Shown here in pieces: positions 2,536 to 63,558 of a stretch of 64,000 bases of DNA (positions within the stretch are counted from its first letter, which is position 1; each line of letters begins with the position of its first letter). This stretch comes from Geosiphon pyriformis uo1 (Eukaryota > Fungi > Glomeromycota). Under the pieces are notes generated by a model, which had not been told where the DNA came from, searched no databases, and saw nothing but the letters and a program-made list of their open reading frames with translations. The stretch covers positions 124,844 to 188,843 of the forward strand of contig JAAOMT010000639.1 in assembly GCA_016748015.1 (NCBI GenBank), in the 5' to 3' direction. The translations under genes and the position numbers were made by a program.

Positions 2536-2764
2536 TAATAATAATAAATATAATTCATAAATTTCAAATTTTTATTATATATTAATCCTAATTTTTTATA
2601 TTTAAATTTTATTTGAAATTTAAACTCTGTTTTTACAAGTAATTAAAAATAATTTTACAAATTTTACAATTTTATTTATTGTTATTTTAATATATTTATA
2701 TATTTTTAATATGTTTTAATATCAATTTATTAATACAAATATATATATTTTTATTTATATTAAT

Positions 2765-5900: not shown

Positions 5901-5917
5901 ATAGCTGATAAAACAAA

Positions 5918-7767: not shown

Positions 7768-7824
7768 TTTTCTTGGTTGCTTTTGTCGCAAGTACTGTGT
7801 TCTTTTTTATATACTCTTTTGGTT

Positions 7825-11096: not shown

Positions 11097-11309
11097 AATG
11101 TTACAGATGATTATTTAAGATTTCAAATCAAATAACAAATCCGTAACTTGGTGCTTGGTTGGTATTTTGGTGTTAATGTCTAAAGGTTTTGTTGATCTGA
11201 AGGTTTTGTTATGGAGTTTTTTGTATAATAGACAGAGATGTAATAGTTGTTTTTAGTAGCCTCCTGGAATTACAATTCTGTTGAATTTCTTTCTCAGTGT
11301 GGTGACCAG

Positions 11310-12092
11310 TATTATTCATAGAAAAAAAAAACAGATATAGGAAAATAGGAGACCAATAGGAGAATAGTAGTTAGCATGTGAACATATTGCTTAGCAATGT
11401 GGAGTGATGTCAAGAAAATACAGCACATTGCTTAAGAAATTATAATACATTGCTTGAGAATGTGAGCAATTTCATAGAACCCAAATTATGTATATATAGT
11501 GGTAGCATTAAAAGTAAAAAAGACAGATCTCTCAGTTTAGATTTGATCTAAGCAATCCTCTATTCACAAATATTAATAAATAATTATTGACCATCTTAAT
11601 TTACTTTCCACTATTAACACTTCATGTTAATAGTAAGTAATACTTAACCACACAAGAACAATAGCTCTTGATTATGGCTATTGATGGGATACTAACTTGC
11701 AATTGCTTTCATTTATTTCTTTATTTTTATTTTTATTTTCTTTTGATTTGTCATTTCATTGGTTTTACTAAACTGATTAAAAATTAAGTGCTGAGTTATT
11801 GATGTTAAGAATAGCCTAGTAAAAGACCCCAAAGGAAGGGTATAGGAATTAAAAATTTAAGAATAGCTTACCAGAAAGGCATCTCTGTCAAGATTACTGG
11901 CCACTATGTTGAGAAAAAAATTTGACAAAACTGTGGTTTTGGGAGGCTATGAGAAAGACAACACTTGAATCTCTGTCTATTATACAAAAGACTCCACAAC
12001 AAAACCTTCAGATATTGACACCAGAATACCAACCAAGCACCAAGTTACAGATTTGTTATTTGACTTGAGACTCCAAATAATCATCTGTAATA
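11310..12092 (+). repeat. E2 5' LTR (783 bp)
   Basis: TATTATTCATA...CTGTAATA (decayed TG..CA); TATATATA at 11491; followed by the PBS. Confidence 0.93.
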
Positions 12093-12094
12093 TT

Positions 12095-12112
12095 TGGTGC
12101 TCCCTGTGAGGT
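12095..12112 (+). promoter_or_regulatory. E2 PBS TGGTGCTCCCTGTGAGGT
   Basis: Starts with TGG 2 nt after the LTR; complementary to a tRNA 3' end ACCUCACAGGGAGCACCA. Confidence 0.92.
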
Positions 12113-13243: not shown

Positions 13244-13923
13244 TATTACAGGTTGGAGTAACAAGCTAACAGATAGCAAGGGAGAACAAGATTGTAGGGT
13301 GATGGAAATAATCAAAGGAGAATTTAACTTTAAAAAGTGAATTGAATGAGTATGGATTCAATGTGCGAGATCAGTCTCATAAAATATCTCAGTCACTATT
13401 CTTTTCAAAAGGTAACAAGAGAATCTGAAGATAGAGGGATAGTCCGTACTGTCAACAATTGATTACTATTGGTATAATTCTATGCCTCATGTTGGCACTC
13501 TTAGAATTCAATATCAGATATCAACTTGTGCTTTTCAGTCACATTTATTCAAATAATCTTCAAATGCTACAATTATATACATTAGGAAAAGGCCAACAAG
13601 TAATCTTTTATCCTAAGATGTTTGGATACTTGAAGATAGGGAAAGGAAAATTAACAATAAGAGAGTGATTGAGATAAAAGTTGTTATTTTTATTTATTTG
13701 ATTCTTGTTTGAGAGATGATTTTCTACAGCTAAAAGACTCATCATTTATATAGCTAATGAAAGTAGTCAACGATTAGGTCAATGATCAGGTCAATAATCA
13801 GGTCAACAGTCAGGTCATTGATCAGATCAATGATCACTATCTAAAAATAGAGTGGCTAATTATATGACATCAGTGGCTAATACATGTAATAACTAATAAA
13901 AATTATGGGTTTCAATCATAACA
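13244..13923 (-). repeat. E3 3' LTR (680 bp; five 12-bp TGATCAGGTCAA units)
   Basis: Direct repeat of 20260-20963. Confidence 0.95.
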
Positions 13924-14548
13924 TCATTCTCTCCAAAGAGATTGAGCTCTGCCAAAATCAAGCTATTTATAGGGTATTCTAATTGAAAGGTTTTGTCTAA
14001 CTCAAAACTAACTAGTTTGTTGAAGTCTTTTGTGAATAGAGTATATAGTACTTGAGGTGAAATAAGCTTTGTATCCAAGAGACCAAATCTTTGTATAAGA
14101 GTTTTGGCTCTTCTTGTAATAGTCAAAACTCTTGGGACATCTAAATATATAATGCCCGAAATTTCCACTTGTATCTCTGAAGTTGTTTTCTTCATGAGCT
14201 TCATTTCTTCTATAATTCACCAAAATGACCATAGAGTTCTAGTTGTCTTCCATATGACAAGTTTTTGTCTATGGGCAAGATTTCCTTAATCGTTTTTCCA
14301 ATTGTCATAGAAGGTGTAAGTATTGCTGCTGTTATGCTTTTCAGCAAATACTTATCCATTTTGCTACCAATTCTTTCTCTTCTAGTAGTGGTTTTCTTTG
14401 GTCTAATAATAGTATGTGTTCCACTGTTATTAGTTATGGTGGTTTGTTTTCCAATGGTCAGAGTAGCATTTGGATAATTTTTGATCCAGTACTCATGGAG
14501 AGTGTAAAAAGTGTTTTGAATGTTTTGATCTAGGAAATAATTGTTCAT
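13893..14548 (-). pseudogene. E3 ORF3 (MNNYFLDQNIQNTFYTLHEYW...; one frameshift near 14215; reads through the PPT into the LTR)
   Basis: Two long ORF pieces (14644-14210 and 14204-13893); TATAAATA at 14594-14587, 46 nt upstream of the ATG at 14548. Confidence 0.65.
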
Positions 14549-20235: not shown

Positions 20236-20253
20236 ACCTCACAGGGAGCACCA
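20236..20253 (-). promoter_or_regulatory. E3 PBS TGGTGCTCCCTGTGAGGT
   Basis: Identical 18-mer to the E2 PBS; 6 nt from the LTR end. Confidence 0.9.
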
Positions 20254-20259
20254 CTTTTA

Positions 20260-20963
20260 TGTTATGGGTTGGAGTAATAAGCTAATGGATAGCAAAGGAG
20301 AACAGGATTATAGGGTGATGAAAATAATCAAAGGGGAATTTAACTTTAAAGAGTGAATTGAATGAGTATGAATTCAATGTGCGAGATCAGTCTTATAAAA
20401 TATCTCAGTTGTTATTCTTTTCAAAAGATAACAAGGGAATCTGAAGATAGAGGGATAGTCCATACTGTCAACAATTGATTACTACTGGTATAATTCTATG
20501 CTTCATGTTAGCGCTCTTAGAATTCAATATCAGGTATCAACTTGTGCTTTTTAGTCACATTTATTCAAATAATCTTCAAATGCTACAATTATATACGTCA
20601 GGAAAAGACCAACAAATAATCTTTTATCCTAAGATGTTCGGATACTTGAAGGTAAGGAAAGGAAAATTAGTGATAAGAGAGTGATTGAGATGAAAGTTGT
20701 TATTTTTATTTATTTGATTCTTGTCTGAGAAATAATTTTCTACAGCTAAGAGACTCATCGCTTATATAGCTAATGAAAATAGTCAATGACCAGGTCAATG
20801 ACTAGGTCAATGATCAGGTCAATGATCAGGTCAATGATCAGGTTAATGGTCAGGTCATTGATCAGGTCAATGATCACTATCTAAAAATAGAGTGGCTAAT
20901 TATATGACATCAGTGGCTAATACATGTAATAACTAATAAAAATTATGGGTTTCAACTATAACA
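20260..20963 (-). repeat. E3 5' LTR (704 bp; seven 12-bp units)
   Basis: TGTTAT...ATAACA; direct repeat of 13244-13923. Confidence 0.95.
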
Positions 20964-20967
20964 CTAG

Positions 20968-23900
20968 AGCCATGCAAGCAATTCTCTACTTTCTTCAGGA
21001 CACTGCTGATACATGATACCAAAGCTTTGCCATCAAACCCCAAAATTTTAACAAATTCAAAACCAAATTCTTAAGATACTTTAGTAACAATAATAGCATC
21101 AACAAATTAGCCAACATCTTCGCTACAATCAAACAAGGGGAAACTGAAGCAGTTACCACTTACTTGAGATGGTTCCACAGGAACCTATGCCAAATTCAAG
21201 CAATCCAAGATGACTATTTTACAGTGTCACAAATTCTAAACCAGTTCATCTGTGGGTTGCACAGTAGCATCCTCCAATGCGTACACCTAAGATACCCACA
21301 AACTCTTTAGAATGCAGTTATCAATGCACGAGATTTTAAAGCAGCTGAACTAGAAGCCAATTATGCTCAAGCCATAAACTTAGTCATGAATGGATCATCT
21401 GAATTGGATTTCAAATTGAAACAATTCAGTAATTCAATTAATTAGAAATTGGAAAGATACTTAGCTAACAATCGCGCAATATATTAACCATTACAATGAT
21501 GTAATAATTCTGGAAACACAGATCGTTTCCAGAATCAGTTGCATCCAACATCTTCAACCAATCAACAGTGGCAGTAGGAAACACATATTTGCCACTATTG
21601 TGATAGACAAGGACATTTGCAATTTGAATGTCGAAAAAAAATAAGCGACCAGAGATTAGTTAATCAGTATCAAAATTCTGATTGCTGACTACAAACTCAG
21701 AATTATGTCAGTAATTAATCAAACCCAGCTCTATATTAATAAGATTACTTACCTATGATACAGCCAATATATCAAACACCAATGATGCAGCAATTATACT
21801 TATCTCCAGTCTATCAGCCTCCAGTAGCAATTTATCAATCACAGTCCCAATCCAATTATTAGCCGCAGTCTCAGGTAAATTATCCACCCCAACAACATCA
21901 AACACTACCACAGAACTTATCTCAAAACAAAACTCAAAGACCAAGATTAATACAGCAAAGCTGGAGATTGTCAATGGTAGTCTATCAACCAATCTCCAGT
22001 TCCATGGCACAACCATCAGAATCTTGACCATGAAATTTGGGCACCAGGTACACCCAAAACCCAAATTCTCAGAACTATTTAAGTCTTCTGGTTACTCCAG
22101 AAGATGTCCCACCCAATAATCTGAAAACCAACCAAAAACAATCACTTACCAACAACATACCTCCAGCCATCATCACCAATGACGAATTACTAGTAGTGAT
22201 CTTTCCATTCGAACTTGAAGAAACTACATCAGTTTTATTATTCAGTGGAGCTGCTTTTGACACCAAACCAATTACCACTATGTACACTGATGCCAAAGTT
22301 GATGGCCACTCCATTAAACTGATCTTAGATAGTGGATCAGCTGGCAGCATTATTACAAAGCAACTTATGAACCAATTAGGTCGCCAAGTTGATTGTGCTG
22401 CCAGTGCCAGAATTATAACTGCCAATGGAGCAACCAAAACTCCCATTGGTAAGATTGATGACTTCCTTATAGAAGTCAATGGTATTATTGTACCAATTAA
22501 AATATTAGTCATAGAAGTCACCCAATACCAAGCACTCATTAGTAATAATTGGTTATCTAAAACCAACATATCGCTTGATTGGAATACACAGGAGCTTCAA
22601 ATCAGCCAGAACGGATGACACACACATGTACCAGCCACATGTGGCCACTTTACAACCACCTACTTGACAGCACCACTCATAGAGTTCGAAGAAAAAAAAG
22701 AAAAACCTACCTGGGAAGCTTATCAAGTGTCCTGGGCTGGTGAAAAACACAATGAACTGCCACCAGTACCTTCATGGGATGACAATAACAGGAAAAAAAA
22801 GAAAAGAGAAGAACTTATCTGGAATGCTGACCAAAACTGAAAAATCCATAACAATCAGGATGAATTATCAATAACCTGGAAATGGGAAGAGGATAAAATA
22901 AAAAGAAAAGGGAAAAAAAAAAAAAAAATTTCATACCAACTCTTATTTACCCTACATATACGTACACAACACTACAATCAAGCTATTGTCACCCAAAACT
23001 CATATGCATTGATTGTAACAAGAAATTATTGTCAATGGGCACGTGTTGTGATAACAATAAGGAATACTCAACAGCAACCAAATTCTATTGTTGTGCATGC
23101 ATCATAGAACACTTTGGATGTCCAAAACAAAAAGAAAAATAGGACAATGAATCATGCTTGGCTTGTGGTGAAACTTTTCTGGACAAAGAAATGTGAAATG
23201 ACATTCTTAAACAAGAAGAAATGTGTGACAAATCATGTCAATACACAATTCTCATAAGCAACTGGATAAGAAAAGGAATGTTTATAGACACTGCCTGGAG
23301 ATGAGCCATTAAACGTCTGAACAGATGTCCACATGATAATAACAAAATCTGGTAAATGGCACTTGCCAAAATTGAAGGAGCAACCCCAGAAGAAATAAAA
23401 ACAATCAAAGACAACCCATCTGAACTCATAAAACTTAACTGGGACCCAGAACCAGTCATAAATCTACTAGATCCAGAACAATTCTACAAATACTACCAGG
23501 AATTAGCACTTACTAAAAAAGAACAAGAGCAACAGTTGGAAAAAATCAATACTTGACTATGTGACCATTGTTTAATTCTCTGTGACTTCCAATATTGTAA
23601 TGAGTGTGACCTCATTTACAATCCACCACCATGCATAATCTACACAATCTCAGAGGAAGAAAAACCAATCAGCAGCTGTGCATTGGAATTGGAATCAGTT
23701 TCCAATTCCGATTCAGACTTCGACAATAATGACAACAAAAATAACAGTTCCAGCTCTATTCAAAATGGCAATAACAATAACAACAATTCCAACTCGGATT
23801 CAAACTCTGATTCAAACTATGAACAATATATTGCACTCTTTGATCTCACCAAGGAGCAGGAACTAAAATGGTTCAGCAATAATGATAAAGATATTATGCC

Positions 23901-26222
23901 AGAATGCACACATGATACTGACGCAGGATTTGATCTGAGATATCTGGGGAAAGATTCCATTAAATTGGAACCACATTCACACACTTGCATCAATAATGAT
24001 AAAGATATTATGCCAGAATGCACACATGATACTGATGCAGAATTTGATCTGAGATATCTGGGGAAAAATTCCATCAAATTGGAACCACATTCACACACTT
24101 GCATCAATCTGAAAATAGCACTGGAAATTCCAGCAACAACAATGGTTCAATTAGCATCCAGAAGTAGTTTAGCAAAAAGGGAATTAACATTAGAAGAGGA
24201 ATAATTGACACAGAATACATAGAAAATATTATTGCTATGCTACAAAATGATTCAGAAAAGACATATACCATAGATCCAAATAAAAAAATAGCACAGGCAA
24301 TATTCCTACTTCTGATGAAAATAGCTCAATTATTGTCAGTAGGAAACAGGGAGGAATTAGGGATTACAGTTAGAGGGATACAGGGATTTGGATCAATGGG
24401 TATAATAGATATACTAATCAATATGGCAGAAGAAAAAATTGTTGACAAAGAAGAAATTATCTCAACCCATCAAGCAATTTCTATTCCACTATATGACCAG
24501 TATATGTTAGCCATAAAAAGAGAAGTGAAGGATCAAGCTTAATTGTTTGAAGCAAAAGCCACCATTTGTGAATCAGGAGAGATTGGACTTACCAATCTCT
24601 ACATCTCAGCCAACAGCCCCAAAAATATTAAAATTTCCATCCACAACACAACTGGAAACATCATTGAAATACTAAAGGGAACCATTATTGGATATTTAAC
24701 CACTGAAGTTGAGGATTAACCACCAAACCATATTCCAGATTTTCCACAACTGTGTGGATATGTAAACATCACATCACAAACCATCTACAGATAAAGTGGA
24801 TGCTATCTGCTCCAACCAGAACAATTGGAACAGAAAAACATAAAAAATCTAGACCCACTCCAACAGATGTTACTCAACAATTTTAATGACATCTTTGCTA
24901 GCAAAAATGAATTTGGCCACACCAATATCATCTAGCATTAGATCAAAACTAAAGATGCAATGCCAATTAAACAAAAAGCATACAAAGTACCACCACCTAG
25001 CCATGAGATCATTTGTCAAGAAATCAATCAGATGCTTGACAATGAGCTAATTCAGCCATCAATGAGTCCATGGTTGTCACCAGTAGTACTAGTCTGGAAG
25101 AAGAATAGAAAAATTTGCTTTTGTGTAGATTACCAAAAATTGAATGGAGTAACCAAGAGAGACAGCTACCCAACTCCAAAGATCCAAGAACTATTCAACA
25201 CTTTTGGAGGAAACAAATGGTTTTTGACACTGGATTTAGATAGTGGCTACTGGCAAGTAGCTATGGATTTAGCTGAAAAAAAAAAGACCACATTTACAAC
25301 AAAAGAAGAGAATTTTGAATTTGAAATCATGCCATTTGGCTTGATAAATGCTCTAGCAACATTTCAATGGCTCATGGAAATCATATATACTGGACTACTA
25401 TGGAAATCAGTAGTCATATACTTAAATAACACCAATGTATTCTCAAAAACATTCAATGATCATCTGAATCACCTCTAGCAGGTGTTTGAAAGACTAAGAA
25501 GAGCTGGATTGAAACTAAATGCAATGAAGTGTTTCTTTAGAAAAATTGAACTCAAGTTTTTGGGACATGTTGTAAGCAAAGATGATATCAAAATGAATTC
25601 AAATAAGATTGCAATAGTAAAAAACTTTCCAGTACTAACAAACTTGCCAGAACTAAGGGCATTTTTGGGCTTCACAGATTATTATCACCACTTCATTAAG
25701 GACTTTTCCAAACTAGCTCAGCCATTTTACCAGTTACAAACTAAGAATGTAAAGTATGAATGGACTGAAGCTCAACAAAAAGCATTCGACACATTGAGAA
25801 GAAAGCTTATTCAAGCCCCAGTGTTGATGTATTCAGACCACAGCAAACCATTCATTATCACTACAGATGTATTAGGTTAAGCATTGGGAGCAGTACTATC
25901 ACAGAAAGAACCAGATGGAAGAAAACATCCAGTAGCTTATGCCAGTAAAAGCTTAAGTCCAGCTGAAAAGAACTATAGAATTTCAGCACTGAAACACTTA
26001 GCAATCTATTGAGCAGTCATGAAATGGAGAGAATACTTGAGCCAAAAGTTTGAAATATACATGGATCACAAGGAATTGACTTCAATTCAGAAACAAGAAT
26101 TTGCAGACAATTGCCATGCCAGATGAAAAATAGAACTTTCACTATTTAACTATACAGTACATTATAAAAAGGGAAAAAATAATGAAAATACTAATAGATT
26201 GTTATGAATAAAACAAATCTAA
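20968..26222 (+). pseudogene. E2 gag (C-terminal part), PR, Cys-rich domain, dUTPase, RT, RNase H
   Basis: CHYCDRQGHLQFEC; LILDSGSAGSII; AGFDL, RSSLA, KIAQAI, RGIQGFGS; FCVDYQKLN, DLDSGYWQ, YLNN (decayed YLDD); TTDVLG; stop at 26220-26222. Confidence 0.92.
23877..24104 (+). repeat. 114-bp in-frame tandem duplication inside the E2 dUTPase
   Basis: 23877-23990 is repeated at 23991-24104, with CAAT microhomology at the junctions. Confidence 0.95.
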
Positions 26223-26253
26223 AAACATTTCAACCTTAAAAATATAACAAAAG

Positions 26254-27630
26254 ATAAATATACAAAAATACCAACAATTTCAACATTATATAAATACCCA
26301 ATTGTTCAAGAAAAAATTATCTCAAAAAGAACAAAAGAACATAAAACAACAATCAAAATATTTTATTAACTATTAAAATATACTTTACCGAAAGAACAAA
26401 AAAAATCTAGATTAACTAACCAAAGTAATCACAGAACCAGAAAAAGAGAAAATATTATTCAACATGCACTCAGATCCAACAGCAGAACATTTTCATAAAA
26501 AAACAACCATGGAAAGAACCAAAAAAAGATATTATTGGCCATCAATATATTCAAATATCATCCAATATGTTCAAAATTATAATGCTTATTAGAGAAGAAA
26601 AGGAACAAGATCCAGTAAACCATTGAGACCAATCAAAGTAAAACAACTATTTGATTACATTGGAATTGACTTAGTTGGACCATTAACAATCACCAGCAGA
26701 GGCAACAGATATATTGTAGTAGCCATGAACTATCTTATCAAATGGCCAGAAGCAAAAGCCATTCAAAGAGCAGATGCAGAATCCGTTGCCAAATTCGTTC
26801 ATCAAGATTTGATTTGTTAACATAAATGTCTAAAAGAACTATTATCAGATCAAGGAACTCACTTTGTAAACAGAATACTGGCAGAATTAAGTCAAAAATT
26901 TGGAATTAAAAGACCATTATCATTGTTATATTATTTACAAACCAATAGACTAGTTGAAAGATTCAATAGAACATTGTGTGAAGCAATTGCCAAAATCAGT
27001 CAAGAAAACCAAGATAAATGGGATTTGTTCATACCATCAGTATTATTTGCTTATCGGACAATGAAGCAAGATACCACACAAGCAACACCATTTGAACTAG
27101 TATATGGTAGAAAAGCAACATTACCAGTTGAGATAAAGGTCAATACATATTCAACTGAACCAATAACAGAAGATAATTTTCAAGAAACATTGTTGAGAAG
27201 AACATATGACTTAATGAAAACACTAAAAAACAGACAACAAAAAGCAGCTGACAACATACAAAAGTCACAAGAGAAACAAAAAGAGAGACATGATAACCAA
27301 CTACCAGACAAACCAGTTGAATTCAAAATTGGAGACAAAGTACTTCTACATCATACTAAAGCGGAAAAACAATAGAGTAGAAAATTTGATCCCAAATGAG
27401 ATGAACCATTTCACATTAAAGAAATTCTTGGAAATAAAGCTTACAAATTAAGATGGGACAACAAAATTTTAGCCAAAGCAGCACATAGTGATCAACTGAA
27501 ACAATATTACCAGATAGCATTATCATCTATCAATAACATTTCACAACTAGAAGTACAAAGAATACTAGTTCAACCAGATGAGATTTTATGAGATCTGGAA
27601 CCAATCATAGTTATTAAACCAAACACATAA
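26254..27630 (+). pseudogene. E2 integrase, separate ORF (start decayed ATG>ATA), 459 codons
   Basis: MHSDPTAEHF, GIDLVGP, SDQGTHF, VERFNRTL, FKIGDKV, ..EPIIVIKPNT*; no chromodomain. Confidence 0.9.
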
Positions 27631-27648
27631 AATCAAACAATCAGAAAG

Positions 27649-27657
27649 TATATAAAG
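27649..27657 (+). promoter_or_regulatory. Putative internal TATA box for ORF3 (TATATAAAG)
   Basis: 41 nt upstream of the ORF3 ATG; positionally conserved in E1 (7813), E3 (14594) and E4 (48858). Confidence 0.6.
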
Positions 27658-27689
27658 ACACAGTATACGCAACAAAAGCAATCAAGAAA

Positions 27690-28325
27690 ATGGAAATACC
27701 AGATTATATTCACACTATAGCTCAACAACTGTTCCAGGTCTTAAGTCAACAACAGTTAGACATAGAAATTATTGTTAACAACCAAACAATTTGTTATTAA
27801 AACACTAAAAAAAAGACAAAAAACACACCATATCAGTGGATATCAAAGAATGATAAAAACTGGTCAGATAACATAATAGAAAAAGTAAAGAACACATTTG
27901 GGAAAATACCTATTATAACACCAACAGAAGAACTTACAAAAGAGAATTGGAAGCAATGGACAGAACAACTTCCAATATCATACTGTTACTACCAGTTAGA
28001 TCGGAAGTTGAATATTCAGGAGTTGTATATTGACAAATCCAATAGAATATTCAACCAAGACATAATACAACAAATTGAAGAATTTATTGAAAAAAAAATA
28101 AATTCAACACTACATATTAGAACAATGTACTAATTACACAACATATTTCGAAACTATCCAGAAATACTGTTATACTCTGACATGGAAATCATAACTATTA
28201 AACAATGAGGAAGAATGAACAATACACAAGTGGAAGATGTGAGAAACAGAGTTGAACAAACAATACTTGAAAAAGAAGTATTAGAATTAATTTAAAATGA
28301 AGATTTCAACAGAGCTCAATATTAA
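27690..28325 (+). pseudogene. E2 ORF3 (212 codons, unknown accessory protein)
   Basis: MEIPDYIHTIAQQLFQVL...YCYYQLDRKLNIQELY...FRNYPEILL...DFNRAQY*; ends at the PPT; the internal stops are explainable as C>T or G>A transitions. Confidence 0.75.
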
Positions 28326-28339
28326 AAAGAAGGAGATAA
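28324..28339 (+). promoter_or_regulatory. E2 polypurine tract AAAAAGAAGGAGATAA
   Basis: Immediately precedes the 3' LTR. Confidence 0.9.
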
Positions 28340-29219
28340 TATTACTCATAAAAAAAAAAACAGATATAAGAAAATAGGAGACCAATAGGAAAATAGTAGT
28401 TAGCATGTGAGCACATTGCTCAGCAATGTGGAGCAATGTCAGAAAGTATGGCATATTGCTCAACAATGTAGAGCAATATCAGAAATCACGGCACATCGCT
28501 CAGCAATGTGGAGCAATGTCAAGAAAATATGGCATATTGCTTAGCAATATGAGCATTGCTTGAGAAATTATAGCACATTGCTTGAGAATGTGAGTGATTT
28601 CATAGAACCCAAATTATGTATATATAGTGGTAGCATTAGAAGTAGAAAGACAGATCTTTCAGTTTAGATTTGATTTAAGCAACTCTCCATTTACAAATAT
28701 CAATAAATAATTATTCACTATCTTAATCCACTTTCCATTATCAACACTTTATGTTGATAGTAAGTAATACTTAACCATATGAGAACAATAGCTCTTGATC
28801 ACAGCTATTGACAGGATACTAACTTGTAATTGCTTTTATTTATTTCTTTGTTTTTTTTTTTATTTTCCTTTGATTTGTTATTTTGTTGGTTTTACTAAAC
28901 TGATTAAAAATTAAGTACTGAGTTATTGACATCAAGAATAGCCTGGTAAAAGACCCCAAAGGAAGGGTATAAGAATTGAAAATTTAAGGATAGCTTACCA
29001 GAAGGACATCTCTGCCAAAATTACCAGCCACCACACTGAGAAAAAAATTTGATGAAACTGCAGTTTCGGGAGGCTATGGGAAAGACAACACTTGAATCTC
29101 TGTCTATTATACAAAAGACTTTACAACAAAACCTTCAGATATTGACACCAGAATACCAACCAAGCACCAAGTTACAGATTTGTTATTTGACTTGAGACCC
29201 CAAATAATCATCTGTAACA
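28340..29219 (+). repeat. E2 3' LTR (880 bp) with an expanded ~40-bp U3 repeat array
   Basis: TATTACTCATA...CTGTAACA; direct repeat of 11310-12092. Confidence 0.95.
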
Positions 29220-29279
29220 CCAGTAATTCTCTTGGTAAGCTATCCTCAAATTTATAAGTGTTTTATTCTTGTTTTACGG

Positions 29280-30735: not shown

Positions 30736-30950
30736 NNNNNNNNNNNNNNNNNNNNNNNNNNNNNNNNNNNNNNNNNNNNNNNNNNNNNNNNNNNNNNNNN
30801 NNNNNNNNNNNNNNNNNNNNNNNNNNNNNNNNNNNNNNNNNNNNNNNNNNNNNNNNNNNNNNNNNNNNNNNNNNNNNNNNNNNNNNNNNNNNNNNNNNNN
30901 NNNNNNNNNNNNNNNNNNNNNNNNNNNNNNNNNNNNNNNNNNNNNNNNNN
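30736..30950. other. Assembly gap (215 N)
   Basis: Run of N. Confidence 1.
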
Positions 30951-34400: not shown

Positions 34401-37400
34401 CTTTTGCAAGATGATTTTGAATTACTTGGTGGTAAAAGATGAATTGGTGGTTGAGTCTAATAAAGTGAAGCTTAAGATAAATAAAATTATGGAAGGGTAG
34501 ACAAAAAAACAGTCAGTGCTTCCAAAGATGTCCAACTTTTAGGCTCATTAATACATGTTCTTAAACTATGTTGATAATAATGTCTTTTCTGGTGTGATGA
34601 AAAAGATTGATATAAAGAAGCTGTTTTTGGTTGTTAATAATTTACTAAATAATAAGGCTGCTGAATTGTCAAGAATACTTAATAAACTTTAAAAAAATTA
34701 TGATAGAGAGGTGCTGGTTTGTTTTTTAAGACTATTAAATTTGTGTTTGACTTTGGATATAATTTTGATTTCTTAGAAGAGAGTGTGGGTTTTGATAATC
34801 CCAAAATCTTATGAATGGAATAGCATTTTAATAAATACTAGGCCTATTACACTGATTAAGACTGCCTAGAAGATATTATCTAAGATTTTTTTTGATAAAA
34901 TTTCATTAGTGTACAGCAAATTTGATGTTTTTTATGGTAATAACTTTTTAGTGTTAAAAAGTACTTTAACTCAGTCTCCTATTTTTGCCATTGGATTAGT
35001 CATTAAAGATGCTCTGAAGAAAAACAGATTGGTTGGTATTATAAGACATGCACAAAGCTTATGATTTAGTGGGCTGACATTATTTAAAAGTTAGTTTGTA
35101 TTGTATTAAGATATACAGCTAATTTATCAGGTTTTTTGGCAGTATTTATAAGAATTGTATCAATAAAGCTATAACAGATTTTGGACTCTCAAATGATTAT
35201 AGAGTACATGATGGCTTGAATTAGAGTGAGGTTTTTTCTCTACTTTTTTGGAGAATTTTCTATAATCTACTTTTGTGTAAAGTAAAGAGACATAAATATT
35301 TGTACAAATACCATATTAATACTAGATTTGTGGCAAAGACTAACAGAATTAAGGCTGTTGGAGAAAGAATTTTTTTTTTAGCAGCTGGTATCTTTGTCGA
35401 CAACATAATTTGGATTGGAAGTTGTCAAGCTTCTACACAATACATTTTTAATATTGTCAGTGAGTTTTTTGTTGTCAATAATATTTTTATTAATAATAAT
35501 AAGACAGTAGCTATTTTCATTAATCAAAGTATCAAGTTTGTATTACTGTTAATTAATAGTTTACTTATCTTAATTGTCAAAAAAAGTGAATTATACAGGT
35601 ACTTGGGTATTTTTTTATCCACTGAAGATTTTTCTAAACCTAGTTTGGCTTAGACTCATGTAAATGTTTGGTTTTTTTTAAATATGGTGTTAAAGAAAAC
35701 CATTACAGATAAACAATTTTCTTACTTGGTTTTGGCTGTTTTGCAGTCCATAGTTAGCTATTAAATACAATTTAGTTTTGTTTTGACAAGTGTGTATTAC
35801 AAATGGGATGTAATAGTTAGAAAGTGTCTTAAGATCAAGACTAGTTTGCTTTGTGACTTTTCCAATAAGACTTTACATCATCCATTTTTGTATGATTTAA
35901 AATCTTTTAAGCAAGTGCAATTTGAAAAGAAGTTGGCTTTATTGATTTCTTTTTTCAATGCTCACAGCATTTTTAGACATCTTTTTAAGCATAGATTTTT
36001 AAATTTGCAGATTTTGAGATGGTTTTTTTTGAATTCTTTACAGTTTTTTATCAAGTTGTATGTTAATTTAACAAATAATTTTTTGGCTGGTATGATAAAA
36101 ATCTTTTTGGAAAATAAGTTGTCTTTAATAAACAACTTGCCTACTGCTTTTTGCAAGCCAAGTAGGTTTCCAATGTTTGGTATCTTAGAGCAACTCTTGT
36201 ATTACAACTTTGTTCCTTTTTTAAAATAGTTTGGTATTGCATTTGGTGACAGATTTCTGGACAAAAAAGAGAATGTGATAGATTGGAAAACTTTTCAGTA
36301 ATGGAAAAAATTGAATCTGAAAGGCTCTGTGTTTTATTAATTTAGACTGATATCTGAGTTTATAAGAAAAAATGGTTTTTTTAAGATTAAATTTGCTGTT
36401 GTTTCTGGATTGTCTGTGCTAAATATCTTGAAATTCAAGAAGTTCTGTGATGTTTATGATTGTTTATTAAAGATTTGGTCTGATTGTATTAAGATTTACA
36501 CAGATGGGTCCTTAAAGAGTGCTGGTTCTGCTAAGGTAACAAGTGGGATGGCTGCTTATTTTCCAGCTGTTGATGTGGATGTTAAAATTAGAGTGCATAG
36601 ACTGTTGTCTTCTACTTTGGCTGAATTACAGACTGTTGTTTTGGCTTTGAAGTGTGTTTTATCTTCATGTGTTATAGTTTTGTATTTAAATAGTCAATTT
36701 GCAATTGATGCTTATGTGTCTGAAACTTCATTTGTGATACTTGATTTTTGCAATCAATGTTGGATAGAAAAATTGTATATAGTCAATTTTATTAAAGATA
36801 AAAACATTTCAGTTAAGTGGATGAAAGTTAAGAGACATTCAGGAATTTTAGGCAATATTAAGACTAATAAACTAGTTAACAAGACCATTTTTTCTTCTTT
36901 TTCTTTACATGTGGGAATTCAGAAACAGTTTTTGGTTGCTAAAAATACTGCTGTGTTTGGTAATGCTTATCATTTTGTTTGTAATCTGTACTGGTTAATT
37001 TGCTGTGCTTATTGAGAACCTGGTTCTGGTTTTGATGTTGTTTCAAGTGTTATGGTTAAAGAAATAGATTGAACTACTATTACAATGAGTTGGCATCCTA
37101 ACTTGTATATGCTTTCTGAGTTTACTAGTAGAAAATTGGCTAATTTGCATACATATATAATAAAAATAGTATACAGATAACTGTCAATAACAGTTAAGAA
37201 GAAGTTATATAACAGAAATTATCCTAGAATGTTGTGCTTGCTGTGTAACAAGATGAAATTGTCTGATTATGTTTTTACTTGTTTTGATAATATTGGTCTT
37301 TATAAAAACATTTTGGTTGAGACTGCTAAAAAATAGATATTGTTGGCAGGTTCTTTTTGTTTGTCTAATTCTGATATTTTGCACTTACTTTCAATATGTG

Positions 37401-37917
37401 TTTCAAATGTGATTTTGTACACTGCAATTTGCAAGAGCTTTGTGTTAAGAGATTGGTATATTAAAGCTGTTCTAATCTTTAAGGGGAAGAAAAAAACTGC
37501 TCTGACTCTGGTTGAATACATTCAGTTTGTAGTAGAATTGCATTGCATTAAAATGTGATTAATTAAATTCAAACATAGGATGAATATTGAAAAGACTGGT
37601 TTGGTTAAGAATGATGGTTTGATTGTGGACTTGTCTTACTGTATAATATTTATATTGTCAGATAGAATGGTTTGTATGCTTGGTATTATGGAATCTTTTG
37701 CTGTTAGTTTTGGCAAACATAAAATATGTTATTTTTTTTCTGGTTTAGATGCTGATGCTTTTATTAATATAGACATATAATGTTGTTTTAACTGGCCCAA
37801 ATAACTAGTCACATGTAGCAAATACATGAATTGTATTTAATTTAAACCATTTAGTTTGGTTTTATGTACTAGATAGCAGTTAGACTTTATTTATAAAATT
37901 TTATAATAATAAAAAAA
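31493..37917 (+). mobile_element. LINE L2, continuation: ORF1 to 33099; ORF2 33096-37780 (APE, RT, RNase H, CCHC); 3' UTR and A-tail
   Basis: Colinear with L1: ETKLK, GDFN, DTDH, RPITLIK, DMHKAYD, FVDN, IYTDGS, KVKRHSG, CLLCNK; many nonsense transitions. Confidence 0.92.
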
Positions 37918-39073
37918 TAGGTAATTAAAAATATTACATGTATTTAAAAAAATAATACTAAAGTTATTTTTTTTTTGTTTGTATTTGTTTAAATATTTTT
38001 AAGTTATACAATAATAAATAATAAATAATCTTATTTAAAAATTTTTTTGGCAATCTAATCTTTATTTTCAAGCTTTTTTTGATTAAAATATCTTATTTAA
38101 TATACATATTTTTGAAAACAAAATTGAATTAAGTTTTATAATTAACAATAAATTGCAATATAGCTAAAATTAAATAAAAAAACTGCTTATTTAAAATAGT
38201 TTTTTTTAAAACTATATTAGCAAAACTTAATATTTAAATATGTTTTAGCCAAACTAGATTTAAATAGATTATTTAATAACAAAAAAATATTCAAGTATTT
38301 ATAAGGTTTCTTTTTTTTTGTAATAAATATTAGTAAATTATTAATTATTAAATAAACATTTCTTATTTTCTAATTAATAAAAATAGTTATGGTTTTTTTA
38401 TTGTTAATAGAAATATTATTAATCATAAAAAATTTATTTATAATATTTAAAATATATTAAGTAGTAATCTAATTATTTTTTATTTAAATTGTATTATTAA
38501 CAAATATATTAATTTTTAAATATAAAGTTAATTCAGTTTGATTTTTAATTCTGTTAAACTTAATAGCAAATTTAGTATTAATTTAATAATATAAATTTTA
38601 TATTTTTTTATTTTATATAAAAAAAAATTATAAAAAATTCTTTAAAACAACAAAAAAAAAACTTTATTTTGATTTAAACTATTATATATTTAGTTTTTAT
38701 TTATTAATTTATAATTTATTATAATATAATTAATTCTATTATTATAAATGCTGCCAAAAAACTTTATAAATTTTTTATATATTTTTATTCTAATTAGACT
38801 ATTTTTTAAATAATATTAATTAACAAATTATAAGTTTTACACATATTTTACAAGACTAATTAGAGCTTATAATCTTTTTTTAATATATTTTTTATCAAAA
38901 TATTTTTTAAAATTAAAAAACTGATTTATATATTAAACAAAGATTTAAAAAATCTAAAAACATTTTTAATGTTTTTAAAGTTTATTAATGATATTAAACA
39001 AATTAGCAGTTTTTTTATTTAGTAAATTTTTAATTATATTTAATATTTTATTATATTTAATAATATTTATTAT
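37912..39073 (-). mobile_element. LINE L0, middle segment (RT region)
   Basis: The reverse complement continues exactly from 4670 (matching L2 near 35870-35985). TTTTTTGGCAGCATTTATAA (about 38745) matches L2 35132, and 39030 matches L2 34640. Confidence 0.75.
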
Positions 39074-39099
39074 TAAAAATTAAAACTTCTTTCTTTCCT

Positions 39100-41061
39100 T
39101 TGTCCCAAATTTCTGAAAAAGAGTCAAATTTTGAAAGAAGTTTTTTCTGTTTTTGCATACTGTCTTTCAATATTTCACAAGAATCAAACCCTTTTGTTGT
39201 TGGCCTGGCTGCCACTATAAGTAGTCATGATGCTAAGAAAAGGTCTGCCAGAGTTTCAACCACTAGTTCAGTTGGTGGTGGTTCAACTCAAAAAGTCAAA
39301 AAGCCTCTCAGTGGTATTAAACTTTCAGATACGGATAAGGATCTCAAAATTAGTAGACCTGTTAGTATAGACAGGCAACTTACTAGCATGGATACGGATG
39401 GAGAAGCCTTTGATGGAAAAATCACTTCTGACTCCCAAATGAATACACCCAATGTGAAGTGTTTCAATACTGGTGTGGCTATCAGTTCCCCTCTCAGCTC
39501 TATCAATTATGACATGGATGATGATGAAGAGGAAGTTTCTCTTCTTCTCCAGTTGTCTTTCTCTTTGGAAAAGATGTGAGTGGACCCCAAAATTGTTAAA
39601 ACTCAGGTAGAAGTGGCTGTGAAGAAATCTTTCACTTTGGATATCAATTTTTTGGCTGTGGAAAGGAAATCGGCAACGGCCAAGACTCATGCCATAAGGA
39701 AATTATTTTCAAGAATCAATGGTTTTGGGGGGGCCACTACCCCCTCAAAGTTTAAAGGGATCATCAGATCTACATTCACATCAGAGGAAAGCATGAGAAA
39801 AGCTGTATCATTGGCTGGAGAAAATGGGATTATTGTAAACACCGATCTTAAAAGACAAGGAGTGCGCTCAGATCGGGCTGTAGTGATAAAGAAAATTCCC
39901 ATGGATATGCCAAAAAAAATGATCGTCGCCGCAGTGTCTGAATTTGGTCAAGTGGTGTTGATCCAATTGCAACTCATTGGGCTGTAGCAAAAAGCTGTAG
40001 TGGAGTTTGCCAAATCGAGTTAGGCAGATCAGTTGGCAGCTAAGTGGTCATTTTTAATTGGGAAAGATTCAGTGCGCGTGGCTAAGACTGTGCAGAATCA
40101 TGAGACGTGGGTGTCTAAAGATCAGTATAAGGCACTTTTGTTTACTTTGCCAGTGGGAACAATGGCTCATGATCTTGGCAATTTTTTGGCAGGGGCTGGT
40201 GAGAAAACTTGTGTCATAAATCATTCTTTAGTCACTGGCAATAGGATTCGTTGTGCTGTGATTTGTTTTGAGAATAATGAGGATTTGGAGTCTGTGTTTC
40301 ATACAGAGCCTGTTTTTGGTGGGGTGAAACTTTTTTGGGCTAGATTGGATTTGGTTCGGTGTGAACAATGTAGGAAACTTGGTTATTCAGTTCTGGAGTG
40401 TGATGCTGAAGTCTCACATTCTCCTGAACTTTCCAAATCATTTAAAAAGATTGTCTCTGATAAAACCCGCTTCCAGTTGGCCAAGCTATATGCAAAAAAG
40501 AGTGTGCCTATTTCCAGACCAGCTGCATTCGGCAGCAAATTATGGGCCCAGGTTGTCTCCCTAGCGTCTTCATCTAATGGTCCTCACTTTGGTTCTGGTC
40601 CTAATTTTGGCTCTTCTTCTGGCGCCTCAGTTTTGGTTGGTAACTCATCTCTCGCGGGTCCTGTTGGTTCAATTTTGGAAACTCGTCTCGCTTCTTTGGA
40701 GCACTTTTTGGAATTTCTCATGGATAAGATATCCGGTATTATTGACAAACTTGACAGTTTAAGCTTGGTGCCCTCGGCTCTCGATTCCTCTTCTTAGCCC
40801 TTGGCTGCCCCTGGTTCAGTCAATATGAAACTTGGTTCAAATATTTTTTTGGATGAACTTAATTCTGTGGTTATTCCTCCTTCTTCGGTTTCCTCTGATA
40901 CCTCAAGTTTGGGTTCGAGTAGTTCAAAAGTTCTGACTTCAAAAGTGGGTTGCTTGGAATCAAAGTTGGTGGCTCTCGAAGCTTCGGTTAGTTCGGTATT
41001 GGAGAAGTTAGATCAGATGTGTGCTGGCTCGGGTTCTGCGGTCTTTTTTGCAACCCGATGA
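39100..41061 (+). pseudogene. L1 ORF1 (RRM-like region, CCHC-like knuckle, coiled-coil tail); exact start uncertain
   Basis: Four ORF pieces in one frame; VVIKKIPMD..FGQVV..AVVEF; CEQCRKLGYSVLEC; LETRLASLE and LESKLVALE heptads. Confidence 0.85.
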
Positions 41062-44000
41062 ATGATTTAGTATGGAAAATAGCCACATGTAATGTCAGAG
41101 GAATGAACAATTCAGCTAAACAAGAGGATATTATATGTTGGCACAAGAATATGAACAATTTAGTTTCAATTGTCACTGAGACAAAGTTAAAAGATAAGGT
41201 ACAGCCTTGGATTGCTAGCAAGTTCGATGGTGTTTGGGTCTTCATTTCTGGTTTGAATTCTGGTCATCTTGGTTCTGGTGTGGCAATCATTATAAACAAT
41301 TCTCTGGCCAAGCACGTGTGCAAAGTTTCTAAGGTCCCTGGTCGCCTTATTTCTGTCAAGTTGCTTTTTAGGAATAAATTCTCAGTTTCTTTTTTGGGTC
41401 TGTATGCTGGCGCGTCGGCTTTGGTGTGCTTCTCTCAGGCCAATGACGTGAATACTATGATTGCTAGTGCTGTGAATGAATCATCCTTTGTGGTCTTAGG
41501 TGGTGACTTCAATGAAGATAGTTTGCATAGAAGCGCCAGTTTCAGGAAGTGTGGTAGCTTGGGTCTGGTCAACTCTCTTGTCTGCAGTCTATTTGTAAAA
41601 GTCCCAACTTGGAGTAACTCCTGGGGTGTGACAAAGACAATTGATTATCTTTTCATATCTCCCAATTTGGTCAATGCTATTGTGGATCATGATGTTTTGG
41701 ATGTGTCTGACTTCTTTGATACTGACCATCAAGCTGTTTCTGCGTCAATTGGTTTAGGTGGTCTCTTAGATACACGTTTGTGTTCTGTTCGCAAGCAGGC
41801 CAATAGGGATTGTTGGAAGTACGATTTTAAGGATACTAGTGTTGCCTTGTGGTTGAGATTCAGGGAGGCCACAGCAGTGAATGCTGCCATGTTCTCTGCT
41901 GATTTCTTGGCTGCCAGGGATCTATTGGATTTGGATGCGATGTGGAATGCTGTTCAAAAAACTATGTGCTTCTCAGTGAGTGAAGTTTTCAGGAAAAAAT
42001 GGTTTAAAGGTTATAATGGCGTTTTCACTAAGCATTCATTCAGGTTCCATAAGCTAGAACTTTTAGTGTTCAAGTTGGTCAAAGCTTCCTGTTCTGTTGA
42101 TTGTGATGTGTTTGTATCGCTACTTGATACTTGAGAAGTGCTTGATTCTGCTGGTGCTGCTGTGGTAAGGTCTCTTTTTCTCTCGAAGTCTTTTTTTGAC
42201 AACATTTGTTCAGCTCTGTCCAAAACCAGGAAGTTTTATCGTGCCTCAAAGTTGTTGGAATCAAAATGTGCTGAAGAGTCACAAATCAGATCTGCTGTTG
42301 ATAAAAGGATGGAGAGCTTTGAATCTAACAAGGGTCACACTATTAGAAGCATCTTGGAGAGGCCTTTTCGCAAGGTGGTTTTGGATTATTTGGTGGTTGG
42401 TGATGAGCTGTATTTGGATCCTGATCATGTTAAAGAGAAAGTGGATGAGATTATGGAGGGGTGGACTCGTAAACATGATGTGGCTCTTAATGTTTCTGGG
42501 AATTGGTCTAACCAATATTGGCCTTTGGATTACGTATTTGATGGCACTTTTTTAAATGTAATGAGCTGTGTTAGTTTTGATGAGATGTCTGGTGTGGTCT
42601 CTGTCCTACCTAACGGAAAGGCTGCTGGTCTCTCAGGCATCTCCAATGAACTTTGGAAGCACTGTGATAAATCTGTTCTTGATATGCTCTTGGTGCTTAT
42701 TAATTCTTGTCTTCATGGTGAGTCTGTGTCTGGTGCTTAGAAGGAAGCCTGGGTGTTGATGATTCCCAAACCTTATGAATGGGAGGGTGTGCTCACAAAC
42801 ACTTGTCCTATTGCTCTGATTGAGACAGCTTGAAAAATTCTTTCCAAAATTCTCTCTGATAGGATCTCTTTGGCATGTAGCAAGTTTGATATTCTTCGTG
42901 GGGACAATTTTTCCATTCTCAAAGGCATTACAACTCAGTCTCCCATTTTTGCAATTGGTTCGGTGATTGAAGATGCTCTTGAAAAAAACCAGGAGCTCTG
43001 GCTGGTTTTACAAGACATGTGAAAAGCATATGACTTGGTCAGTTGGGATCATCTTAAAAAAAGTTTGGTTAGGATAAAAATGTGCTGCTGGTTTATAAGT
43101 TTTTTTGGAAATATTCATGGTGGTCAAACAAACTGGGTTATGACTGATTTTGGGTTGATGAATGGTTATCATGTACACAATGGCTTGGACCAAGGGGAGG
43201 TATTTTCACCTCTTCTTTGGTGTATATTTTATGATCCTCTTTTGTGCAAAGTTAAGAGGCAGGAGAGTGTATGTGGTTACAGGTTAAATTCTCATTTTGT
43301 TGCTAAGACGGGCCGTGTAGAGTCCCAGGCTGGTTTGTCGTCTTTCTTTGCTGCTGGCGCTTTTGTGAACAATATGATCTGGATGGATAGCAGTCAGACT
43401 GCCACTCAACACATTCTTGATGTGGCTAGTGAGTTTTTCCATATCAATGATATTTCAATTAATAATAATAAGACAATGGCTATTCCAATTAATAGCTGTG
43501 CCAGTGCACCTTCTCTTTTCATCAGTGGATCCCCTATTTCTATAGCTAAATCAAGCAAATCTCATCATTATCTGAGTATCTTCGTGTCTTCTGAGGGACT
43601 GTCAAAGCCCAGCCTGGCAAAAGCCCATTCAGATGTTTGTTTTTTTATCAACTTGGTTCTAAGAAAAGCCGTATTGGACAAACAATTTCTTTATTTGGTG
43701 TCAGCTGTTCTCCACTCCATCATTGGTTATAGAACTCAGTTTAGTTTTGTTTCTGTCAGTGTGTGTAATAAGTGGGATGCTATGATTCATAGGGGCTTGA
43801 AATCCAAGTCTGGATTGTCTCTTGATTTTCCTAATGACATGATCTATCACCCTTTATTCTATGGGTTGAAATCTTTTGTCTAGATTCAATCAGAGAGTAA
43901 AGTCACTTCCCTTATTTGTTTTGCAAACTCAGTGGGAATTCTGGGTTGCCTGTTCTCCCACAGGTCTCATGACTTACAGGTTTTGAGCTGGCGCCCTATT

Positions 44001-45724
44001 CATCCTTTGAGTGTTTCTGTTCATGTACAAGTCAGCCCTTTGAGTAATTTCTTAGCAGGTGCTGTTTGTGTTCTCCTCGATTGCAACTTATCTTTGAGTG
44101 GGTCTTTTGGTAGTCCATTTCGGCTTTGTGGTGGGATACCCATGTCTACTATTCTTAGTGAGTCTAAATTTGTCAAGTTCCTTCCTTCACTCCGACGATA
44201 TGACATCACCTTTGTTGACCAACTCCATGATTGTTATGGAGCTGTGTTTGACTGGTACAAATTCAAGCAGTAGAAGAGATTGGATCTCCGTAGCCCAACT
44301 CCTGAGTGGTTCACACTTTCTGTCAAGTTCCTGTCTAATACGTCTTCTCCTCGTGTCACTTCTCCTGCTTTGACTGGTGTGGGTCTTCAGAGTATTCTCG
44401 CCTCTCCTGGCTTTGTGTTGGTTCATGATCAGCTTTCCCAAGTCCTTCCTAGTAGCATTTCTGTTTATACAGATGGGTCTCTAACAAACCTTGGTACCAA
44501 GAATTGCACAGCTGGGACTGGTGTTTTTTTCAGTGACATTGATCTGGGTTTGGGCGTTGGAGTTTTGGGTCTACTGTCTTCTACATTGGTGGAAATGCAG
44601 GCCATTGTGCTGGCACTGGAGTGTGTCCCCCATTCTAGTTGTGTTTATCTGTTCTCTAACAGTCAAGCTGCTTTGGATGCCTACAAGTCGGAATTGGGTC
44701 TAGTGCATCCGAATTTTTGCAACTGTTGTTGGGTTGAACGCCTGCATATTGTAAACATTATTTGTGGCAAAAACTTAATGGTTAAATGGCACAAAGTGAA
44801 AGGCCACTCTGGTGTGATTGGAAATGAATGTGCTAATGCTATAGCTGGTGTTTCTTCTCACTCGGGCTGGTTCCTTCCTTGTTGGCGGATGGTGGGGCTG
44901 TTTCTGGCAATTTCAGGTATTTTGTTTGCGATATTTTTCGTTTTGTTAGTCATGTGCGCTGGGAGATTGGTTTTGGTTCTAAATTTCTGTCTGCCAGTTT
45001 GTTCACGGATGTAGATTGGTCCTGCTCCTCACTGGTATGGCATCCTGATTCACACATGGCTGCTGGCCACACTAGCAAGTCCACAGCAGATGTGTGCAGT
45101 TTTCTCATAAAGGCATTGCACCACCAGCTGCCTGTTGCTGTTCGTAAATGTTTGTATAACAGAAAATAGCCCAGCATATTGTGCTTATATTGTGGTGAAG
45201 TGGAGACATCAGATCATGTTTTCTCTTGCAAGGCTGATGTCTCTGCACGTCTTCAGATACTGGATACATGTTCAAAATCTTGGATGGTGCTTTCTGGCCT
45301 GTCTCACTCTTCTTCCTGCATGCTGCAATTGCTGTCTTCTTGTGCCTCTGATGTTTCTGTGTTTACGGTTCTCTCTAAAGAGTTTGTTTTTATTAAGTGG
45401 CTTCATGAAGCTATCTCTGTTTTCAAATATCACAAGGCTGCTGGTTCAACTATTGTTGAGTTCATGCGTTCCCTTAGTTTTGCTTTTAGGAATAATATTT
45501 GGTTGGTTAGGGTTAAGCATTGTGTGTTTATGGAGAGAAATAATCTCATCCCACTTGACAGTTTGGTTCCCATCTTGGTCCCTGGCTCGGCTTCTAGGTT
45601 CTCAGCTGGCGTTGTTAGGCTACTTGGTGTGGCTGAGGCTTTTGGTGTTCATTTTGGCTTTTGTAAACAATGTTCTTTCTTTTCTGGTGTCAGTGATTCT
45701 GTTTCGGTATGTATAGCTGTGTAG
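41058..45724 (+). pseudogene. L1 ORF2: APE endonuclease, RT, RNase H, C-terminal CCHC
   Basis: TCNVRG, TETK, GDFN, IDY, TDH; KAAG.SG, PIALIE, QDM.KAYD, GLDQGEVFSPLL, FVNN (decayed FVDD); VYTDGS, KVKGHSG; CLYCGEVETSDHVFSC; frameshift near 44880. Confidence 0.93.
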
Positions 45725-45861
45725 TGTTGTCCTGATTGGCCTGAGTAGCTGGTCACGTGTAGAAAAAGCATAATTCACACTTAGTTTATGTCATTTCTTT
45801 GATGTATAGCTTTAGGTAGTGTTTGGATCTCACTCATAAAATGTAATAAAAAAAAAAATAA

Positions 45862-47330: not shown

Positions 47331-48167
47331 TGTTACAAGTAATTATTTGGGGTCTCAAATCAAATAACAAACCCATAACTTGGTGCTTGGCTAATATTCT
47401 GGTGTTGATATCTGAAGGTTTTGTTGGAGAGTTTTTTATATAATAAACAGAAATTTAATTGATGATTTTATTCATAGCTTTCCGAAACCACAGTTTCATT
47501 AAATTTTTTTTTTAGTGTAATGGTCAGTAATTCTCCTGATAAGCTATTTCTAAATCTATAAGTGTTCTACTCTTGTTTCACAGGTCTTTTATCAGTCCCT
47601 ATGATGTCTGTATCTTAGCACTTAATTCTTAATCAATTTAGTAAAACCAAAGAAATAACAAAATAAAATAAAATAAAATAAAAAAATATAAAGAAATGAG
47701 TCAAAGCAATTACAAGTTAGTATCCTATCAATAGCCATGATCAAAAGCTATTGTTCCAGTATAGTTAAGTATCAATTACTATTAACATGAAATGCTGATA
47801 GTAAAAAATAAATTTAAGATAGAGAATAATTATTTATTGATATTTGTGAGTTGGAAGGTTGCTTAGATCAATTCTAAACTAAGAGATCTCTAACTAAAAG
47901 ATTCTGTCTTTTTTCCTTCTAATACTACTGCTATATATACATGATTGAGATTCCTCAATTTCTCAATTCCTTATACCAGAAATCCTAGAATTCCTTTTGA
48001 GAGAAATCCTGGAATTCTGGAATCTTGCGATTCCTTGTCCAAGAATTCTAAAATTCCTGGAATCCTGCAATTCCTCTAAGAGAAATCCTGGAATTTCACA
48101 TTTACTATGGTTATTTCTGATTGGCTAATTTATGCTAATATATACTTCCTATATTCTATAAGTAACA
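47331..48167 (-). repeat. E4 3' LTR (837 bp) with a GGAATTCCAGGATTC-type U3 array
   Basis: TGTTACA...GTAACA; the R/U5 part is homologous to the E1 LTR. Confidence 0.92.
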
Positions 48168-48180
48168 TTATTTCCTCTTT

Positions 48181-48819
48181 TTAATATTGAGCTCCATTGA
48201 GATCTCCCAAATTTCCTAATCATAATTCTCTATCTTTGAGTATTTTCTGAACTTCTTTTTTGAGAATTATTTGTGTTATCCTGTTTTGTAATTCTTCAAA
48301 TTGGGCATTGGTTATTTTTCCCATTTAGTTCACTGTAATAGAGTCTATTTCTAAATTAAGTAAAATTTCTGGTCTGTTTTGGAATCCAGCATGCAATTAA
48401 TAGATGGCTTTTGCTTGTGTTGTTAAATTGTTCTTTCTCATAAATTGTTCTAGTTGTTGTAGTATTATTGTGTTAAATAATTGGTTTGTTTTATTCATGT
48501 ATAAGTTTTGAATATTCAAGTGTCGTCCCAAGTAGAAATAACAAAAGTTTCTTGGAAATTTGTGTATCCACTATTTCCACGTTTTTTTGGTCAATTCTTG
48601 ATATGTGGTGACACTTGTTGGTTTTTCTATTGCTAATTTTATTTTCAGAACCATTTTGTCAATAGTGTTTTCTGTTTTTCTTTGATTTTTGTATTTGGGT
48701 ATTTTTCTGGTATCTTGGTATTAAATGGTTTATTAATTAATAGTAATTTTCATATTCTGTTGTTGAATCAGTTGGAAGATTTGTTGTGCTAGTGAGTAGA
48801 TGTTGTCAGTAATTTCCAT
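48181..48819 (-). pseudogene. E4 ORF3 (213 codons; divergent homolog of E1/E2 ORF3)
   Basis: MEITDNIYSLAQQIFQLI...FCYFYLGRHLNIQNLY...FQNRPEILL...DLNGAQY*; TATAAATA at 48858. Confidence 0.75.
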
Positions 48820-50256: not shown

Positions 50257-50287
50257 CTTTTATTATATTTTTAGGGTTGAAATGTTT

Positions 50288-57227: not shown

Positions 57228-57289
57228 TTTGGTGCTCCCTGTGAAGTATAATCTTACAGAGAACCAGCACCAACAAACATTATCCAAAA

Positions 57290-63496: not shown

Positions 63497-63558
63497 GAAC
63501 ATTTTAACACAAAAATATAACAAAACCAGAACAATACCAACAAAAAATGTAACAAAAG

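Follow-up and report, generated by a model that had tools for sequence, protein, structure and literature searches.

ORF3, an accessory reading frame of the Ty3/gypsy retrotransposons in a 64,000-nt stretch of the Geosiphon pyriformis genome (the window), is a protein-coding gene under purifying selection, whose position between the stand-alone integrase ORF and the polypurine tract (PPT) is fixed. The spacer before it, ORF3 itself and the U3 repeat array behind it form one block, the history of which differs from that of the integrase and of R/U5. The gene family is real and looks undescribed; its arrangement is of a known kind, and its cassette structure was unexpected.

A conserved gene between integrase and PPT

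The window is AT-rich and CpG-depleted (CpG observed/expected 0.18) and consists of a stack of nested elements, in which E3 lies inside the gag region of E2, E2 inside the 5' LTR of E1, and E5 inside the leader of E4. As expected for Ty3/gypsy LTR retrotransposons, the host elements have the order PR-RT-RH-IN, paired LTRs, a primer-binding site, a PPT and a target duplication. LTR pairs are 90-92% identical, and the E3 pair differs by 52 transitions and no transversions. Flanking 4-bp duplications are found at E2 (CCAG, 11306-11309 and 29220-29223) and E3 (CTAG, 13244 region and 20964-20967). Families A and B have the same primer-binding site (12093-12112 and 57229-57248, plus strand; 20240-20262, minus strand), which presumably resembles the 3' end of tRNA-Ile. 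An assembly gap (215 N, 30736-30950) falls within the split 5' LTR region of E1, and a different repeat family with several minus-strand-biased ORFs occupies 34900-46000 and 2384-5913, outside the gypsy nest. The ORF3 copies and the features around the E2 copy are as follows.

27690..28325, plus strand: E2 ORF3, type A1; 211-aa frame, 4 internal stops; 79% identical to uninterrupted P0005
7132..7767, minus strand: E1 ORF3, type A1; 5 internal stops; TATA at 7813
48181..48819, minus strand: E4 ORF3, type A2; 7 internal stops; TATA at 48858
13893..14548, minus strand: E3 ORF3, family B; broken by a frameshift, extends past the PPT into the LTR; TATA at 14594
27649..27656, plus strand: E2 TATA-like box, putative internal promoter, 41 nt before the ORF3 ATG
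28312..28320, plus strand: GAGCTCAAT motif just before the PPT, common to A1, A2, B and metagenome contig L001
28326..28339, plus strand: E2 PPT
28340..29219, plus strand: E2 3' LTR, 90% identical to the 5' LTR (11310-12091), with 74 transitions and 2 transversions

The first-pass annotation had described frames of 212, 212 and 213 codons running to the PPT in family A; the lengths hold, but the frames are not open, as E1, E2 and E4 carry the internal stops listed above. Its estimate of about 215 codons to the PPT for family B has to be replaced by 218 aa, reading through the PPT into the LTR. The first 112 aa of the E3 copy are 93% identical to uninterrupted 218-aa copies, and its frame shifts near 14212-14219. 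At the positions of the internal stops the nearest uninterrupted copies have Q, R or W, which fits C-to-T decay following insertion, and the density of stops is near that of integrase and RT-RH within the same copies. The ORF3 copies in the window are dead copies of a real gene. Even E1, which has lost most of pol, retains the integrase tail, ORF3 and the LTR, as had been noted before.

All six matches to E2 ORF3 are hypothetical proteins of G. pyriformis (best 79% identity). Uninterrupted copies, which occur among the Geosiphon gene models and in metagenomes, exist for type A1 (P0005, like E1/E2) and type A2 (P0009, like E4), which are 42% identical to each other, and for family B 20 of the 87 matches have a length of exactly 218 aa. 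Searching 1.84 billion representatives with a profile yielded 90 matches; the ten that were looked up comprise eight Geosiphon gene models and two metagenome proteins of 230-234 aa, and the homologues found in this way add ORF3 types at 20-38% identity. The gene order of the unrelated metagenome contig L001 is the same, with RT-RH, integrase, a 316-nt spacer, the ORF3 homologue, PPT and LTR. On a second contig, L002, a further ORF of 128 aa without a Pfam match (425-811) lies between integrase and the ORF3 homologue. In five ORF3 pairs dN/dS is 0.12-0.41 and a sixth is saturated; the ratio is below 1 in all six pairs tested. Uninterrupted copies, constraint and shared gene order together bear out the earlier proposal of a conserved accessory gene. 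A reading of the region as non-coding or neutral filler, its frame an accident of A-rich composition, could appeal to the fact that all four window copies are broken, but is already largely refuted and extremely improbable: besides the low dN/dS, second codon positions are the least changed in 6/6 pairs, the ORF3 frame has 4-7 stops against 8-21 in the other frames, and homologues of 209-234 aa persist at about 25% identity.

The integrase upstream is encoded by an ORF of its own.

26254..27630, plus strand: E2 integrase, separate ORF (H2C2, rve, SH3 tail); ATA at the position of the E4 and E5 ATG; 7 internal stops
RNase H-integrase junctions: E2 26205-26260, plus strand; E4 50250-50310, minus strand; E5 63480-63565, plus strand; L001 772-799

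In E2, E4 and E5, a stop codon terminates RNase H and integrase starts in another frame after a spacer, the length of which varies off-frame between these copies, with the ATG kept in E4 and E5. Integrase is probably a separate ORF in E3 and L001 as well: the E3 junction contains three stops, and that of L001 a single stop together with an ATG in frame, a pattern that decay could also produce. No chromodomain was found at the integrase C-terminus of E2 and L001, the tails of which match only the SH3 Tf2-like family.

The TATA-to-ATG distances claimed previously are reproduced (E1 46, E2 41, E4 39 and E3 46 nt). The boxes are present in all four elements, but these amount to two independent cases only, since E1, E2 and E4 share one homologous, ancestral box. 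Among shuffled sequences, 2.5-4.9% have TATAWAW at 35-50 nt, a range set post hoc, and 14-27% have it somewhere in the 100 nt upstream; L001 and L002 have TATAAATA 126 and 111 nt before the first ATG, where the chance of finding it is 75-79%. The TATA box upstream of ORF3 exceeds chance by a modest margin only. At the other end of the gene, all lineages (E1, E2, E3, E4; L001 3092-3100) retain GAGCTCAAT 15-25 nt upstream of the LTR start and read it in different frames, which suggests that it is a cis element adjoining the PPT.

The exchanged block of ORF3 and U3

ORF3 of E4 and E2 is indeed more diverged than pol, with 43% amino acid identity compared to 75% for integrase and 74% for RT-RH. 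Most of the differences between the E2 and E4 integrases are transitions (16 transversions over 457 codons), with a dS of 0.33 and transversions at 5% of the four-fold sites. In ORF3 of the same two elements pS is 0.74 and 6/14 four-fold sites are changed by transversion, and this contrast indicates that the common ancestor of the two ORF3 genes is much older than that of the adjacent integrases. Diversifying selection, which had been proposed as the cause of this difference, is not supported: with synonymous sites saturated, dN/dS is about 0.12 (bootstrap 0.09-0.32, computable in 158/300 replicates), which points to the exchange of an old module under purifying selection, although a whole-gene pairwise ratio leaves room for positive selection at single sites. 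The description of ORF3 as fast-evolving stands in a weaker sense, over long distances (26% identity between L001 and E2, against 51% for integrase).

The diverged block extends from the integrase stop as far as the LTR TATA box. The share of transversions rises from 1-2% in the integrase tail to 14-18% in the spacer, 19% in ORF3 and 27-29% in U3 and falls back to 2-7% in R/U5, and these limits suggest that ORF3 was transferred together with the U3 array in a single recombined cassette. From what is established about retroelement replication, we infer that blocks with these ends would arise by a template switch at the end of integrase combined with first-strand transfer at R. The arrays and U5 blocks concerned are the following.

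28385..28615, plus strand: E2 U3 array, type 1, palindromic CATTGC/GCAATG repeats, directly upstream of the LTR TATA box (28619-28626)
about 6860-7075, minus strand: E1 U3 array, type 1
47935..48110, minus strand: E4 U3 array, type 2, GGAAT/ATTCC repeats
56410-56590, plus strand: U3 array of the E5 LTR, type 2, GGAAT/ATTCC repeats
13752..13840, minus strand: E3 U3 array, type B, CATTGACC repeats, also in the E3 5' LTR (about 20770-20880)
U5 blocks, by eye: E1 6248-6840 and E4 47331-47920, minus strand; E2 28640-29219 and E5 56600-57230, plus strand

The U3 motif changes completely with the ORF3 type while the LTR TATA box and R/U5 stay alike, and L001 has an array of TAATTT-type repeats. Among the matches listed for 196 scanned proteins (best four per protein), 22 gene models, which are spliced predictions, also contain translated U3; 20 of these are concordant with the ORF3 type (15 family B, 2 A1, 3 A2) and two are discordant, namely P0168 (an A2 end followed by a type-1 array) and P0089 (a family-B integrase preceded by a type-1 piece). 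Since the motifs were defined on these very LTRs, their presence is given by construction and the result lies in their exclusiveness between types. Within family A, including the window elements, ORF3 type and U3 motif agree in 8/9 cases among the matches listed. Adjacency alone predicts much of this pairing and is a confounder. The variable positions of the motifs show TG, CA or TA and only seldom CG, as CpG decay would leave them. The U3 motif is not repeated at the internal promoter in family A or B, and the case of L001 is borderline. In that contig the pre-ORF3 spacer (2140-2455) and U3 (3117-3330) share TAATTT repeats, five each, and also a 12-mer, which is reached in 11/200 shuffles. 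By eye, U5 variants look shuffled irrespective of the U3 type, E1 and E4 having one block and E2 and E5 another.

Possible function and rival explanations

Pfam searches with 5, 15 and 3 ORF3 sequences matched no family, and thus neither an Env nor a DNA-binding one, and ORF3 has no PDB or fold match. The highest 19-residue Kyte-Doolittle mean is 0.27-1.37 in 14/14 proteins, below the usual transmembrane threshold of 1.6, and the N-termini are polar by inspection. The assignment of ORF3 as non-Env is therefore upheld, and no chromodomain match was found in it that would make it chromodomain-type. The protein is predicted to be soluble, with an all-helical core at residues 52-195. A possible likeness of ORF3 to the ParB-type HTH (PF17762) and to DUF3102 (PF11300) consists of a helix, a G-K-[ST] turn and a further helix containing R-L, which structural and profile alignments place in the same register, but the scores are at noise level and not significant, making this a lead only. 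A sequence skeleton said to be shared by families A and B can be made out by eye, but it does not reach significance when profiles are compared: hhalign gave 0.1-0.6%, and summed global z values of 3.2-4.4 for 4/4 family-B proteins are accompanied by reversed controls that also exceed the shuffle mean. On these alignments, homology of the family A and B proteins is unproven.

We favor, at a probability of roughly 40%, that ORF3 is a helical DNA-binding regulator, made from the internal TATA promoter, that recognizes its own U3 array and activates or de-silences cognate elements. The TATA box 39-46 nt upstream would drive a short ORF3 mRNA ending in the 3' LTR, and, as the weakest step, the helical core would bind the repeats that precede the LTR TATA box in U3. 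For the earlier suggestion of an LTR-binding regulator or anti-silencing factor, as candidate roles, the pairing of ORF3 types with U3 arrays is indirect support. More tentatively, ORF3 and its array could be a lock-and-key cassette of sequence-specific regulator and operator, traded by recombination among sublineages to escape methylation silencing or cross-activation. The regulator would then belong to a helical DNA-binding family that has not been described and may descend from ParB-HTH proteins, and the elements that carry it would also express their integrase separately.

That ORF3 is a real accessory gene whose role has nothing to do with U3, such as particle assembly, movement through the coenocytic hypha or RNA export, is less probable than the favored regulator. 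Its pairing with U3 would be neighborhood, and the arrays would bind host factors. Adjacency accounts for the linkage, the block ends coincide with the last homologous stretch (the integrase end) and the strand-transfer site, one gene model is discordant, and the absence of a match to any DNA-binding family also fits; yet a shared host factor does not predict a complete change of U3 motif with each ORF3 type next to an unchanged LTR TATA box and R/U5. It is unlikely that ORF3 is a partner of the stand-alone integrase, bringing it into the particle or nucleus or, as a substitute for a chromodomain, directing insertion to repeat-rich chromatin. The separate integrase ORFs, the lack of a chromodomain and the nesting of the elements in each other would suit such a role, but a tight partner should co-vary, and the E2/E4 integrases differ by 16 transversions next to ORF3 proteins of 43% identity. 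Equally unlikely is an RNA-silencing suppressor that binds small or double-stranded RNA or Argonaute without sequence specificity. It would be a small soluble protein encoded at the 3' end, where viral accessory genes are placed. Gypsy elements of the related R. irregularis produce small RNAs, and methylation is also reported at these loci (10.1101/2021.03.30.436303, excerpts). Suppression would, however, leave the type-specific U3 arrays unaccounted for, and a BFVD fold search matched ORF3 to no viral protein.

Relation to known elements

The favored regulator would work like two known systems but, by comparison, belongs to neither. Excerpts on foamy virus Tas/BTas describe a small non-Env gene by the 3' LTR with an internal promoter and an action on the LTR (PMC4929722; PMC8670036), both of which are proposed for ORF3; ORF3 differs in its fungal host, the lack of Env, the lack of a positive sequence or fold link and a U3 motif that is not found at the internal TATA box in family A or B, and its binding is a prediction. 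Types of VANC, the anti-silencing proteins of Arabidopsis VANDAL transposons, are paired with lineage-specific tandem target repeats in a methylated host background (PMC5735166, excerpts), and ORF3 likewise varies with lineage-specific tandem repeats, with adjacency as the confounder. In contrast to the ORF3 elements, VANDALs are DNA transposons, and VANC likely derives from MAIN-like proteins (PMC13547354, excerpts), whereas ORF3 matches no Pfam family.

Conserved extra ORFs between pol and the 3' LTR are already known from plant env-like sense ORFs, maize Grande gene23 and Boty of Botrytis (PMC7264820). Gene23 is driven by a promoter of its own and its product is nuclear, but it and the Boty ORFs are antisense, unlike the sense ORF3, and the plant sense ORFs often have transmembrane stretches, whereas ORF3 is soluble and abuts or overlaps the PPT. 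Our literature searches found no account of ORF3, although genome papers, repeat libraries or supplements may hold one. The family accounts for well over a hundred gene models annotated as hypothetical proteins, which are transposon parts. In G. pyriformis, 41.2% of the genome consists of LTR elements (PMC11952901, excerpts). If true, a sequence-specific activator or anti-silencer would offer a cause for the LTR burst in this CpG-depleted genome and extend the logic of Tas and VANC to fungal retrotransposons.

The ORF3s of bdelloid LTR retrotransposons are similarly family-specific, non-Env and located in dUTPase-bearing Ty3/gypsy elements, but are recognizable enzymes (GDSL, DEDDy; PMC5408684, excerpts). 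A dUTPase has been described in fungal gypsy elements (PMC2864245, excerpts). In the window, none was seen between protease and RT in family B (E3), and family A has a Cys-rich region and a dUTPase at this position (about 23000-24540, plus strand; 51700-53600, minus strand), with a 121-nt tandem duplication in E2 at 23874-24108.
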